NCBI GenBank assembly: GCA_030680955.1
Contig: JAUXUB010000016.1
Span: forward strand, 1-41,035
Reading direction: 5' to 3'
Source: a bacterium
GTDB lineage: Bacteria; Patescibacteriota; Minisyncoccia; UBA6257; JACOXY01
Length of the DNA: 41,035 bases
Below the pieces are notes generated by a model. It saw nothing but the letters and a program-made list of their open reading frames with translations. It was not told the origin of the DNA and did no database searches. The position numbers and the translations under genes were made by a program. Of this stretch, positions 1,191 to 27,017 are shown piece after piece (position 1 is the stretch's first letter; the number at the start of each line of letters is the position of its first letter).

Positions 1191-1344
1191 CACCATCCTC
1201 AATTAACCCCTTCCTATAAGACTTTTGTCATTGCGAGGGCGAAGCCCGCGGCAATCCAAGAAATAATGAGATAAATCTGGATTGCTTCGTCGTTCCTCCT
1301 CGCAAAGACGAGATTAAAAGAGTAATGGTTAATTGGGGATGGTA
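1191..1344 (+). mobile_element. 154-bp multi-hairpin MITE, copy 1 (orientation A)
   Basis: CACCATCCTCAATTAACC...GTCATTGCGAGGGCGAAGCCCGCGGCAATCC...CTGGATTGCTTCGTCGTTCCTCCTCGCAAAGACGAG...GGTTAATTGGGGATGGTA. About 90 percent or more identical by eye to the three other copies. Confidence 0.85.
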
Positions 1345-1810: not shown

Positions 1811-1964
1811 TACCATCCCCAATTAACCACTACTCTTTTAACCTCGTCTTTGCGAGGAGGAACGACGAAGCAATCCAGATTTATCCCGTTAATTTCTGGA
1901 TTGCCGCGGGCTTCGCCCTCGCAATGACAGAAGTCTTATAGGAAGTGGTTAATTGAGGATGGTA
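1811..1964 (-). mobile_element. 154-bp multi-hairpin MITE, copy 2 (orientation B)
   Basis: Reverse complement of the copy 1/3 consensus: TACCATCCCCAATTAACC...GGTTAATTGAGGATGGTA. TA is present at both ends. Confidence 0.85.
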
Positions 1965-2023: not shown

Positions 2024-4216
2024 GTGCTAAAGGAATTGCCATCGGAGTACAATCCAAAAGAATACGAAGAAAAGATGTACAAACTCTGGGAAGACAGTGG
2101 TTTTTTTAATCCAGACAATTTACCTAAAGTTTCAAAACAAAAAAACTTTAGTATCATAATGCCGCCACCTAATGCAAATGGAGCGCTCCATATGGGGCAT
2201 GCGCTTTTTGTAACTTTACAAGACATAATGATTCGATATAAAAGAATGCAGGGATATAAAACACTATGGCTTCCAGGGGCAGATCATGCCGGTTTTGAAA
2301 CTCAAGTTGTTTACCAAAAGAAACTAGAAAAAGAAGGACGGTCTTTTTGGGAAGTGCCAAAAGATAAACTTTACGAGGAAATTTTAGCTTTTACACTAGA
2401 GAATAAAAAACATATGGAAAGCCAGCTTAGGCAACTTGGTGCTTCCTGTGATTGGGGAAGAGAGAAATTCACGCTAGACGATGATATTAAAAAAATAGTT
2501 TATGAAACATTTAAAAAACTTTATGATGACAATTTAGTATATAAAGCGGAGCGCCCTGTAAATTGGTGTACCAGACACCAAACAACCTTATCTGATTTAG
2601 AAATAAAGCACGAGGAGCGAAAAGATAAATTATTTTATGTTCGTTACAAATTTGAAAATTCTGAAGATTATATAGTTGTTGCTACAACAAGACCAGAAAC
2701 AATTCCGGCAGATATTGCGATCGCTGTAAACCCAAAATCAAAATGGAATAAATATGTTGGTAAGAAAGTTTTAAATCCACTTACTCAAGAGGCAATCTTG
2801 ATTATTAGCGATAAGCGCGTAGAAATTTCATTCGGAACTGGTGCGCTTAAAATAACGCCATATCACGACGCGTTAGACTTTGAAATATATAAGGATCATC
2901 CCGAACTACCAGCTTCAAAAAGTGTTATTAATAAATTTGGAGCAATAGAAAATTCTGGGACTAAACTTGATGGATTAAAAATATTGCCAGCAAGAGAAAA
3001 GTCTATAGAAATTTTAAAATTTTCACTAGACAAAGAACCAGAAGATTATGTTCACCAAGTTAGTATTTGCTACAAGTGCAATACTTTAATTGAACCAAGA
3101 ATAATGAATCAGTGGTTTATTAAGACCACCGAAAAATCAAAAACTGGTAGTAAATCTCTAAGAGACCTCGCGATAGATGCAGTAAAGACAAAAAAAGTAA
3201 AATTTGTAACAAAGAAGTTTGAAAAGATTTTCATGCATTGGATGAAGAATCTACGAGATTGGAATATATCTAGGCAAATTGTATGGGGTATTAAAATTCC
3301 AGCTTGGTATCATGAACCAATATGCATACCAAAAAAAGGCCACGAAGGTGATGTGGTGAAATGTAATGAAATTATAATTTCGATGGATGAACCAATATGC
3401 GAGTTTTGCGATGCAAAATTTATACAAGAGTCTGATGTTTTTGATACTTGGTTTTCTTCAGGTCAATGGCCATTCGCATCACTAATGTCCACTCATAATA
3501 AAAATGATTTTAAAGATTTTTATCCAACTGATGTGATGGAAACTGGATGGGATATTTTATTCTTTTGGATAGCAAGAATGATAATGTTGGGAACATACAA
3601 AACAGGTAAAGTGCCTTTCAAAACTGTTTACCTTCATGGGTTGGTTCGCGACAAAGACCGACAAAAAATGTCTAAATCTAAGGGCAATGTTATTGACCCT
3701 CTTGGTGTAGCAGATATTTATGGTGCAGATGCCATAAGAATGTCGCTTGTTGTTGGAACTGCTCCAGGAAATGACCCCGTTATTTCTGAAGATAAAATAC
3801 GCGGTTATAGGAATTTTGCAACAAAAATTTGGAATGCTACAAGACTAATAACAATGCGTGGGTCAAGCACGATTCCAGAAAAACCTAATTATACGAACGA
3901 AGATAAAAAAACACTAAAAGAATTTGAAAAATTCAAAAAAACAGTTATTAAAGATATGGATGCCTATCGCTTTCACGAAGCTTCAAATAAAATTTATCAT
4001 TATTTCTGGCATACTTTTGCCGACAAAATTCTTGAATCATCAAAAGCGCGCTTGCAAGATGAAAATAAAAAAGTTAAAGAAACCGCAACGGCATTTCTCA
4101 TTAAACTCTTAACAGAGCAATTAAAGCTTCTACATCCATTTATGCCTTTTGTAACAGAAGCTATTTGGCAAGAATTATATGGTGGAAAGAAAATATTAAT
4201 GGTGGAAAAATTGTGA
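2024..4216 (+). CDS. valS: Valine--tRNA ligase
   Basis: Class I motifs are present: PPPNANGALHMGH (HIGH) and KMSKSKGN (KMSKS). A CP1 editing region and an anticodon-binding domain are also present. GTG start, TGA stop. At 730 aa there is no C-terminal coiled-coil extension. Confidence 0.95.
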   Translation: MLKELPSEYNPKEYEEKMYKLWEDSGFFNPDNLPKVSKQKNFSIIMPPPNANGALHMGHALFVTLQDIMIRYKRMQGYKTLWLPGADHAGFETQVVYQKKLEKEGRSFWEVPKDKLYEEILAFTLENKKHMESQLRQLGASCDWGREKFTLDDDIKKIVYETFKKLYDDNLVYKAERPVNWCTRHQTTLSDLEIKHEERKDKLFYVRYKFENSEDYIVVATTRPETIPADIAIAVNPKSKWNKYVGKKVLNPLTQEAILIISDKRVEISFGTGALKITPYHDALDFEIYKDHPELPASKSVINKFGAIENSGTKLDGLKILPAREKSIEILKFSLDKEPEDYVHQVSICYKCNTLIEPRIMNQWFIKTTEKSKTGSKSLRDLAIDAVKTKKVKFVTKKFEKIFMHWMKNLRDWNISRQIVWGIKIPAWYHEPICIPKKGHEGDVVKCNEIIISMDEPICEFCDAKFIQESDVFDTWFSSGQWPFASLMSTHNKNDFKDFYPTDVMETGWDILFFWIARMIMLGTYKTGKVPFKTVYLHGLVRDKDRQKMSKSKGNVIDPLGVADIYGADAIRMSLVVGTAPGNDPVISEDKIRGYRNFATKIWNATRLITMRGSSTIPEKPNYTNEDKKTLKEFEKFKKTVIKDMDAYRFHEASNKIYHYFWHTFADKILESSKARLQDENKKVKETATAFLIKLLTEQLKLLHPFMPFVTEAIWQELYGGKKILMVEKL

Positions 4217-4370
4217 TACCATCCTCAATTAACCACTTCCTATAAGATTTTTGTCATTGCGAGGGCGAAGCCCGCGGCAATCTAGAAAAAAACGGGATAA
4301 ATCTGGATTGCTTCGTCGTTCCTCCTCGCAAAGACGAAGTTAAAAGAATAGTGGTTAATTGGGGATGGTA
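4217..4370 (+). mobile_element. 154-bp multi-hairpin MITE, copy 3 (orientation A)
   Basis: It begins immediately after the valS TGA and has TA at both ends. Confidence 0.85.
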
Positions 4371-4374: not shown

Positions 4375-4446
4375 TTTAAGTGAAAATATTATTACAAATA
4401 AAAATAAGGAGAATAGACCTTTTGCACAATTATATTCGTAACGAGA

Positions 4447-4542
4447 TTTTCAAATTTGAGGCGAAGCGAAGTGAAAATTTTGAAGCATATACAAGAGTAT
4501 ATGTTGATAAATTTTCACAAAGTCGTAGCCCAAATTTGGAAA
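4447..4542. repeat. Long imperfect palindrome in the prsW-like leader
   Basis: The inner hairpin is perfect: GTGAAAATTT (4471-4480) / AAATTTTCAC (4509-4518), enclosing CATATAC/GTATATG. The outer arms are TTTTCAAATTTGAGG / CCCAAATTTGGAAA. Confidence 0.45.
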
Positions 4543-4584
4543 TTATAGTAGAATATAATTGTACATAAGGTCTAAAATAAAGAA

Positions 4585-11800: not shown

Positions 11801-11873
11801 TGGTTCGATGGAGCTACTTCGACAAGCTCAGTATAAATCACCACAGGTGGGCTTTTTTGTTTTTTTAATATAA

Positions 11874-12027
11874 TACCATCCCCAATTAACCACTACTCTT
11901 TTAATCTCGTCTTTGCGAGGAGGAACGACGAAGCAATCCAGATTTATCCCATTATTTCCTGGATTGCCGCGGGCTTCGCCCTCGCAATGACAAAAGTCTT
12001 ATAGGAAGTGGTTAATTGAGGATGGTA
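11874..12027 (-). mobile_element. 154-bp multi-hairpin MITE, copy 4 (orientation B)
   Basis: Near-identical to copy 2, with TA at both ends. It lies between rpmB and tRNA-Pro. Confidence 0.85.
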
Positions 12028-12031
12028 TAAT
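12023..12031 (+). promoter_or_regulatory. TGGTATAAT at the MITE copy 4 right junction, 30 nt upstream of tRNA-Pro(GGG)
   Basis: GGATGG|TA|TAATAAAG. The spacing is compatible with a short tRNA leader. Confidence 0.5.
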
Positions 12032-12060: not shown

Positions 12061-12134
12061 CGGAGTATGGGGTAGTGGTAGCCCGCGTGCATGGGGTGCA
12101 TGCAGCCTCGGTTCAATTCCGGGTACTCCGACCA
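12061..12134 (+). tRNA. tRNA-Pro (anticodon GGG), CCA encoded
   Basis: CGGAGTA TG GGGT-AGTGGTA-GCCC G CGTGC-ATGGGGT-GCATG CAGC CTCGG-TTCAATT-CCGGG TACTCCG A CCA. D and T loops are canonical. Confidence 0.85.
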
Positions 12135-26267: not shown

Positions 26268-27017
26268 TATTTACGTCATCGCAAGACGTAAATATTATTC
26301 CAACACTAACTTTTTAATACTATCCAAATCTAAATTTTGAAGCCAAGATTTTATACTTTTTTTATATCCATCCGGTCCATCAAAAAATTCAGATAATAAC
26401 TCTCTTTGGGTAACTGAGGGGAAATTTTTCTCCCCAGAGTAATCACGATGACTCGACCAGCGATAGCTATCTAAAAATTCAATTGCTTTCCTATAATTCG
26501 TCAATTTGCGATCTCGCCATTCCTTAAATTTAAAATCTAATGGATTGAAATGAATATAGTATGGAAGGTGAATAAAATGTGCGTCGTTCTTAACCGGAAC
26601 AGATTTAAATCTCCCCTCAAACAAAGTTCCGACTCTTTCGTATTTATTGTTAAAATACTTGGCATATCCCATATTAACTTTTTTCATAAACAATGAGATA
26701 CTACCCTCGTGACGAGGAGAAATAAGAAGGTGATAGTGATTATCCATCAAACAAAAAACGTGTAGATCAACCAATAACTTTCTTGGCTTCTTTTCATTGG
26801 GTTCAAATTTACGTCTTGCGATGACGTTAAATTGATAATAAGTGCTATTCGCTGGTTCTTGATTATTAAATTCAAATAAGTCGTGAATGAAGCGGTAGCG
26901 ATCCTCATCATCCATAAATATTTTTCTTTTATCTACTCCTCTACTTAAAACGTGATATATTTCACTCATAATGTAATATATAATATCCCAATATTTACGT
27001 CATCGCAAGACGTTAAT
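26268..27017 (-). mobile_element. IS200/RAYT-like unit: Y1 (HUH) transposase gene bracketed by two copies of one hairpin
   Basis: The hairpin TATTTACGTC-ATCGCAA-GACGTAAATA at 26268-26294 is repeated in the same orientation at 26993-27017 with one stem mismatch. The surrounding roughly 35 bp are also repeated. Confidence 0.65.
26295..26969 (-). CDS. REP-associated tyrosine transposase (RAYT) / IS200-like Y1 HUH transposase
   Basis: HUH motif MDNHYHLL, then YIHFNP and RWSSH, as in COG1943/RAYT proteins. 224 aa. Confidence 0.75.
   Translation of the reverse strand: MSEIYHVLSRGVDKRKIFMDDEDRYRFIHDLFEFNNQEPANSTYYQFNVIARRKFEPNEKKPRKLLVDLHVFCLMDNHYHLLISPRHEGSISLFMKKVNMGYAKYFNNKYERVGTLFEGRFKSVPVKNDAHFIHLPYYIHFNPLDFKFKEWRDRKLTNYRKAIEFLDSYRWSSHRDYSGEKNFPSVTQRELLSEFFDGPDGYKKSIKSWLQNLDLDSIKKLVLE

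Follow-up and report, generated by a model that had tools for sequence, protein, structure and literature searches.

A 154-bp MITE family, probably mobilised by an IS630-type transposase, with a TNA target duplication and a REP-dimer core in a Patescibacteria genome

The 154-bp element that is present in four copies in the window (the whole 41,035-bp stretch of DNA analysed here) is, at a probability that we put at about 0.85, a non-autonomous transposon, or MITE, which is mobilised by an IS630-type transposase, duplicates a TNA triplet and carries a dimer of REP modules as its core. As a MITE family it is real and ordinary in kind; above routine are the TNA-duplicating IS630 lineage, the cargo of a CGTC-type REP dimer and a core that is more conserved than the ends. 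The window is contig C15 of a draft genome of 1.07 Mb in 80 contigs, with 36% G+C and an estimated completeness of 96%. An earlier note on the window had described four copies of 154 bp, two in each orientation, as a MITE family. The copies are as described (Table 1), with a mean column identity of 94%, and the family reading holds, supported by the inverted termini, a target duplication, 52 full copies genome-wide and autonomous elements with the same ends. Literature searches by sequence string and keyword gave no description of the 154-bp element or of MITEs in Patescibacteria.

Table 1. Positions of the MITE copies in the window, of the parts of copy 3 and of the RAYT-like genes outside the window.
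Feature	Position	Strand	Remarks
MITE copy 1	1191..1344	+	first base mutated T>C; TGA duplication at 1188-1190 and 1345-1347
MITE copy 2	1811..1964	-	TAA duplication (+ strand reading) at 1808-1810 and 1965-1967
MITE copy 3	4217..4370	+	left flank TGA 4214-4216; right flank TAA 4371-4373
MITE copy 4	11874..12027	-	TAA duplication at 11871-11873 and 12028-12030
Left terminal inverted repeat, copy 3	4217..4238	+	TACCATCCTCAATTAACCACTT; as at the ends of IS630-family elements of other CPR genomes
Core module 1, copy 3	4253..4283	+	CGTC-type REP unit; consensus TGTC-ATTGC-GAGGGCGAAGCCCGCG-GCAAT-CC
A+T-rich central loop, copy 3	4284..4304	+	most variable part of the family
Core module 2, copy 3	4305..4336	+	inverted CGTC-type REP unit; reverse complement CGTC-TTTGC-GAGGAGGAACGACGAA-GCAAT-CC
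Right terminal inverted repeat, copy 3	4349..4370	+	TAGTGGTTAATTGGGGATGGTA
RAYT-like gene	C34:5675-6657
RAYT-like gene	C45:24452-25244

The genome-wide count and alignment that had been proposed as a check, carried out by blastn with copy 3 as the query, gave 52 full-length copies with 91-100% identity and approximately nine broken ones, making about 60 in total, which is far beyond chance expectation. The assembly is an 80-contig draft that is broken up by repeats; four of the broken copies are cut by contig ends, one is truncated at its 5' end, one contains an insert of 43 bp, one is interrupted by another insertion sequence (IS), one forms a chimera with another repeat and one is a 170-bp variant. 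The full copies take up 0.75% of the genome, 8012 bp in all, and have 96.5% identity to their consensus and 94% pairwise. All copies are intergenic, and an ORF on contig C25 that apparently holds one is a mere read-through frame. The 154-bp consensus is non-coding, with stops in all six frames. The terminal inverted repeats TACCATCCYCAATTAACCAC and GTGGTTAATTGRGGATGGTA, occasionally altered by point changes, bound all of the 52 full copies. Within the window, copies 1 and 2 (1191-1964) are inverted and bracket a 131-aa ORF (1369-1764) with no Pfam match; because each has its own duplication (TGA/TGA and TAA/TAA) they represent two separate insertions and not a composite transposon. Copy 4 is located 33 bp upstream of a tRNA (12061-12131). 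Copy 3 is adjoined by an inverted-repeat element of approximately 165 bp (AGACCTTTTGCACAATTATATTC...GAATATAATTGTACATAAGGTCT, 4412-4579), which is found in many copies, at 70-84% identity, in a genome of the same genus and in one of the same family.

The nature of the target duplication is seen when the 52 copies are set in one orientation and the triplets before TACCATCC and after GGATGGTA are compared. The two triplets are identical in 40 of the copies (TTA in 23, TAA in 13, TGA in two and TCA in two), and TNA, at 3 bp, is the only repeat length that fits the flanks. The centre base is decisive here, because the outer T and A would fit a direct repeat and a palindromic target alike; it is the same on both sides in 45 copies (200,000 shuffles average 20.5 and never exceed 35) and complementary in only four. 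At C17:3376-3529 a MITE lies within the loop of another abundant repeat, and this occupied site, CCCGTTTATTTA-MITE-TTAGATTTC, has exactly one TTA more than the empty paralogs, CCAGTTTATTTAGATTGC. The duplication is TNA, 3 bp in length, and the TA is the last two bases of the inverted terminus.

The earlier note had seen TA at seven of the eight ends in the window, which is correct, the exception being copy 1 with its initial CA, and had taken this TA for the duplicated target. This would make the element a canonical IS630/Tc1-mariner or Correia-like MITE with termini CCATCC...GGATGG, whose orthologous empty sites should contain TNATATNA. TA does precede every intact end, and the partner transposase described below belongs to the IS630 family, which is known for TA duplication (PMC2170065). 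The reading is nevertheless highly improbable, since the centre base behaves as a direct and not a palindromic repeat, the TGA/TGA and TCA/TCA pairs are unobtainable by duplication of TA, the empty paralogs of the C17 site are short by the five further bases that the TA model requires and the empty sites of a related Thermus element prove a 3-bp duplication.

At copy 3 the TGA to the left serves a class I tRNA-synthetase ORF (2024-4216) as its stop codon. The ortholog in a genome of the same genus reads ...CTC-TAA-CAAAC at this point, with a single TAA, where the window has ...TTG-TGA-MITE-TAA-TTTT, and from this single TAA it follows that the target was the stop codon itself and that the left TAA later drifted to TGA. 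Across the family the duplicated triplet is the stop codon of a neighbouring gene in five of 52 copies. Orthologous empty sites for the MITE itself were not obtained among the relatives, which are too diverged: the same-genus genome is approximately 80% identical in the single syntenic gene that was aligned, copy 3 can be aligned to it only on the left flank, as far as the stop codon, and the intergenic content at copy 4 differs. A comparison with empty sites had been proposed as the check on the TA duplication; as made at the paralogous site and at the copy 3 ortholog, it agrees with the TNA duplication and contradicts a duplication of TA.

The ends of the MITE, over 20-22 bp, are identical to the termini of intact IS630-family elements in other CPR genomes, in agreement with the earlier suggestion of an IS630/Tc1-mariner-type mobilising enzyme. 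A scan for the exact 20-bp terminus through a collection with one genome per species gave three other MAGs (45-58% G+C), in which the match is confined to the terminus, with helix-turn-helix and DDE_3 domains encoded in the interior; in an Uhrbacteria MAG there are six identical left ends, all abutting TNA. Metagenomes contain many homologs of OrfA from these partner elements, frequently on contigs of approximately 1.1 kb. Three intact elements of 1104-1129 bp with TACCATC-type termini are present on long contigs, where they are flanked by TAA/TAA, TTA/TTA and TTA/TTA, and two decayed copies have unequal flanking triplets. Each intact partner has an OrfA and an adjacent or overlapping OrfB, which are probably joined by a -1 frameshift; a slippery stretch, TTTAAAAAGGGGG, occurs near the junction of the two frames in the elements L036 and L011. 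The Pfam domains found are HTH_33, HTH_29 and DDE_3, and the IS630-family model NF033545 scores 102 bits for OrfB (cut-off 100) and 77 bits for OrfA. The outer 22 bp at each end of the MITE, or about 36 bp with the subterminal stretch, correspond to the ends of an IS630-family IS of approximately 1.1 kb, which has termini starting TACCATCC, helix-turn-helix domains in OrfA and the DDE_3 catalytic domain in OrfB.

The same termini are also found on MITEs with other interiors. A second family of approximately 100 bp (TACCATCCCTAATTAACCGT...) without a REP core is represented at C26:4388-4487 and C54:20276-20375, in both cases flanked by TAA/TAA, and a third MITE, of 158 bp, has the same ends, a different interior and TNA flanks in a genome from another family of the class. 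These ends are common to MITEs with different interiors and to IS630 elements, so the functional part is the ends, on which an enzyme of the IS630 family acts. From the known chemistry of that family, a transposase supplied in trans would bind the inverted termini and excise the element, and would insert it at a TNA target (usually TTA or TAA) with cuts staggered by three bases, so that the triplet is duplicated and the terminal TA is owned by the element. The cognate transposase that the note had suggested looking for elsewhere in the genome was not found: the assembly gave no DDE_3 (PF13358) match at E<=1, the best tblastn match to the partner proteins had an E of 0.35, and the RAYT genes that are present have unrelated hairpins. 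Mobilisation would have taken place within the host genome, and the copies, in an assembly without their cognate transposase, are now probably stranded.

A cultured relative allows the duplication to be examined against orthologous empty alleles. Annotated relatives of the CPR OrfB reach at most 35% identity, and one of the nearest is an IS630-family element of Thermus thermophilus, 1076 bp in length, with a two-ORF transposase and the termini TACCCTTT...AAAGGGTA. All five insertions of this element are flanked by TNA (TGA/TGA, TCA/TCA, TAA/TAA, TCA/TCA and TGA/TGA). At one site the occupied sequence GAGGTTCA-IS-TCACGTGG can be compared with the empty GAGGTTCACGTGG in HB8 pTT27, and at another CCAGGTCA-IS-TCAAAGGG with the empty CCAGGTCAAAGGG in pTMY; both comparisons, between orthologous sites of different strains, are free of mismatches near the junction and give an exact 3-bp duplication. 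On the basis of these two empty alleles the Thermus lineage duplicates three bases and owns its terminal TA, where IS630, ISY100 and Tc1/mariner duplicate TA (PMC2170065). We infer that the element is ISTth6, the sole IS630 member of the genus Thermus, which has been tabulated with a 2-bp direct repeat (PMC6352166); the published value looks like a family default and not a measurement. The Thermus element resembles the CPR system in its two-ORF IS630 transposase, its TACC...GGTA termini and its 3-bp TNA duplication, whereas its OrfB is only about 35% identical to that of the CPR partner, its termini diverge beyond TACC and, unlike the MITE, it is autonomous. Sequence-string and keyword searches of the literature gave no report of a TNA duplication by IS630.

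A 3-bp TNA or TWA duplication is a hallmark of the IS5 and PIF/Harbinger families, which raises the alternative of a Tourist-like MITE moved by a transposase of either type, and the genome does contain one IS4/IS5-type DDE gene (PF01609, DDE_Tnp_1), its only one, at C3:6-812. The encoded protein of 268 aa is an IS982-family transposase (NF033520, 136 bits, cut-off 130). Its element had been considered as the parent of the MITE on account of the 76 bp before the contig junction, which are the right end of a MITE, but was ruled out once the contigs were joined through their 141-bp overlaps, revealing a separate IS of approximately 1019 bp with the termini CTGTGAATTACGAAACT. This copy (C53(rc):1-225 with C3:1-936) lies inside the loop of a MITE copy and is flanked by a 7-bp duplication, TAGGATA, and a second (C1:32584-end with C39:13495-end) is likewise flanked by a 7-bp duplication, TAGGTTA; the IS982 element is a passenger and not the driver. 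A search of the assembly with PF13359 (DDE_Tnp_4) gave no match. All the long elements found with TACCATCC termini encode an IS630-family protein, and no IS5/Harbinger element with such termini was seen in the one-genome-per-species scan, in 400 genomes of the class or on the contigs with OrfA homologs, making the Tourist-like alternative very unlikely.

Compared by their features, the IS630-mobilised MITE described here is close to the RUP elements of Streptococcus pneumoniae and to the eukaryotic Stowaway MITEs of Tc1/mariner, which are also short, non-coding and multi-copy, have termini in common with a carrier of an IS630/Tc1-mariner-class transposase, are targeted to A+T-rich intergenic regions and fold into a long hairpin. 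It is unlike them in duplicating TNA (3 bp) and not TA, in having no partner IS in its host genome and in having an interior that is a REP dimer and not the remnant of an IS deletion. The Correia elements of Neisseria (CREE/NEMIS) are similar in their length of about 150 bp, their long hairpin and a -10-like box that is completed at the target junction. Correia elements duplicate TA and are not known to have a transposase, whereas the 154-bp MITE has a partner family that is identified and duplicates TNA, so that the Correia-like assignment made earlier, in a comparison of features and not of sequence, fails on the target duplication.

The G+C-rich middle of the element consists of two inverted modules, forming a tail-to-tail dimer of CGTC-tagged REP modules in which module 1 reads TGTC-ATTGC-GAGGGCGAAGCCCGCG-GCAAT-CCA and module 2, as its reverse complement, CGTC-TTTGC-GAGGAGGAACGACGAA-GCAAT-CCA. 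The three internal pairings that had been noticed in the window are present, as is the GCAATCTAG of copy 3, where module 1 deviates from the consensus in its final CT. Modules of the same build, with constant outer parts and an inner hairpin that is copy-specific and mostly self-complementary, number 109 in the genome, about half of them outside the MITE, and occur in a few copies in four of 40 relatives. The exact 31-nt left module is also found in 11 unrelated metagenome contigs (39-68% G+C) without the MITE ends, followed in at least five of them by an inverted partner module with a different inner sequence.

CGTC-tagged REPs were described by Di Nocera, De Gregorio and Rocco (2013) as having a head CGTC, often TGTC and also CCTC, A-T as the first stem pairs, a stem of 8-9 bp, a 4-5-nt loop and a tail CCA; dimers predominate, of which the tail-to-tail type is rare, and no dedicated transposase is known for the superfamily (PMC3733652). 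Compared with the text of that paper, the core modules match this description in their unpaired head, A-T-first stem and CCA tail, and also in forming inverted dimers. They differ in that an internal loop and a variable inner hairpin follow a 5-bp outer stem, in place of the 8-9-bp stem and 4-5-nt loop, and their tail-to-tail arrangement is the rare type. REP dimers within longer palindromes have been reported from Anabaena variabilis and Halothiobacillus neapolitanus (PMC3733652), so that there is precedent for this arrangement; new here is the link between the outer palindrome and a transposase family that has a name, where the REP superfamily itself has no dedicated one.

Two loci, a variant at C66 in which the MITE ends are kept and the left module is swapped, and a chimera at C73 in which the MITE is joined to another repeat family at a shared CTCGCAAAGAC, indicate that the core and the free REP dimers recombine. 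Other REP-type repeats were seen in the genome. One abundant family has a different CGTC-type REP dimer (CGTCATTGCGAGCGRAGCGTGGCAATCCA...GATTGCTTCGGGATGACCCTCGCAAAGAC) within a longer imperfect palindrome ending ...ATTCAAG / TTTGAATTCGCG, with examples at C3:14449-14548, C79:4197-4310, C41:6037-6146 and C21:1608-1715 and 65 blastn matches, most of them partial. At C25:4512-4713 and C20:17763-17969, GTCATTGCGAG...GCAATC modules that differ from one another in their self-complementary inner hairpins lie in clusters of three to four, at a spacing of approximately 50-100 bp that is like that of BIME clusters.

That the core is a dimer of REP-type palindromes, that the genome has three RAYT-like (Y1_Tnp) genes and that one RAYT gene abuts a MITE copy might suggest a REPIN-like doublet moved by one of these HUH (Y1) transposases. 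The RAYT gene in the window (26268-27017) has the hairpin ACGTC-ATCGCAA-GACGT at 26273-26289 and 26997-27013 and, inverted, within the gene at 26811-26827. The earlier note had connected these flanking hairpins with the MITE, and the hairpins and the shared CGTC, TCGCAA and GACG are real, but they are all that is shared and the relation to the core is weak: each RAYT-like gene has its own private perfect hairpin, upstream, downstream and inside the frame at a similar relative position, which is unrelated to the core of the MITE, and the type in the window has seven copies genome-wide. To our knowledge, HUH transposition (IS200/IS605, RAYT) makes no target duplication and does not need terminal inverted repeats, whereas the MITE has both. 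CGTC REPs are moreover reported never to flank RAYT genes (PMC3733652), and mobilisation by a RAYT protein is accordingly extremely unlikely.

In a MITE, the ends that are bound by the transposase are expected to be the best kept part, and a plain model in which the interior is junk filler fails to predict a conserved core. The REP modules, however, have 15 variant alleles in 63 columns compared with 62 in 70 columns of the ends (p=5e-7), an approximately 4-fold lower variability. When only singletons are counted there are 10 in the core and 28 in the ends (p=0.009), and G/C and A/T sites both show the difference. The three commonest SNPs occur in all eight possible haplotypes, which is compatible with exchange between copies. 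Selection after insertion, exchange between copies or a role in transposition are all possible causes of the conserved core.

The element folds into a single long rod, of which the three local hairpins described earlier are sub-structures. Folding of both strands, which had also been proposed, gives one very stable rod on each, with values for copy 3 of -74.1 kcal/mol (z -10.8) for the + strand RNA, -63.1 kcal/mol (z -7.7) for the - strand RNA and -36.5 (z -7.2) for the DNA; for the consensus, the + strand gives -75.9 kcal/mol and the - strand -69.6. Over the 54 pairs of the rod, none of the 52 copies has a compensatory double change. The variant types at these pairs comprise 23 that break the pair, 22 that keep it on the - strand only, 19 on the + strand only and six on both, and variability is alike in paired and unpaired columns. 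When copies are counted there is an excess compatible with the + strand, 77 compared with 42, and this is due to two inherited subfamily SNPs, C>T at position 4 (15 copies) and A>G at position 123 (25 copies). The hint of an RNA-level structure that had been drawn from the window is therefore not borne out, while the accompanying caution, that the pattern may have been inherited from a master copy, proved well placed. The element owes its palindromic shape to its ends and the REP dimer, at the level of DNA, and not to selection for an RNA fold. Rfam gave no match at gathering scores, with only a chance miRNA hit at an E of 0.096.

A role for the host, as a terminator, mRNA stabiliser, small RNA or protein-binding site, would be compatible with an origin as a MITE and might be suggested by the very stable fold, by the conservation of the core (15 alleles compared with 62 in the ends) and by the junctions. 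Wherever the duplication is TTA or TAA, one junction of the copy reads GGTATAA, and at 16 of 104 ends an extended -10-like box, TGGTATAAT, is completed; the right junction of copy 2 is one of these, pointing to the tRNA-synthetase gene at 2024. Such TATAAT ends face a co-directional gene in eight of 14 cases, compared with 35 of 85 for other ends, which is no enrichment. Where the flanking genes are in tandem, 13 copies have the orientation of these genes and 19 the reverse, showing no bias, and the number of insertions in convergent, divergent and tandem intergenic regions follows the length of each class. With the box not enriched towards genes and with no bias of strand or region class, a promoter or terminator role was rejected. 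Domestication in the wider sense is unlikely, given in addition the 23 pair-breaking variant types without compensatory changes and the absence of the full MITE from all 40 relatives searched, those of the same genus and family included. Of 400 genomes sampled from the class, only three have the terminus, in one or two copies each. The expansion of the MITE family to about 60 copies would have taken place after the split from the nearest genome of the same genus.

Taken jointly, the TNA-duplicating MITE and its partners raise the possibility, which we put forward tentatively and regard as doubtful, of an IS630 clade in CPR bacteria and Thermus that cuts at TNA with a stagger of three bases, and of CGTC REP dimers that can spread inside the shell of a DDE-type MITE. 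Such a clade may have been recorded as duplicating TA only because its termini end in TA, and for annotation it would be prudent to check the bases outside TA-flanked termini before a TA duplication is called. Duplication of TA is regarded as defining for IS630/Tc1/mariner, and a lineage with a 3-bp TNA duplication departs from it; a natural clade with another stagger could aid the study of target choice and cutting. The CGTC-type REP dimer, whose means of spread has been unexplained, is here tied to a vehicle with a named transposase, and, if the reading as a REP dimer in a transposon shell is true, the strong conservation after insertion would mean that the core serves the host or the element. 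The family also serves as a worked example of how MITEs have burst in a genome of the CPR/Patescibacteria, of which it occupies 0.75% of 1 Mb.
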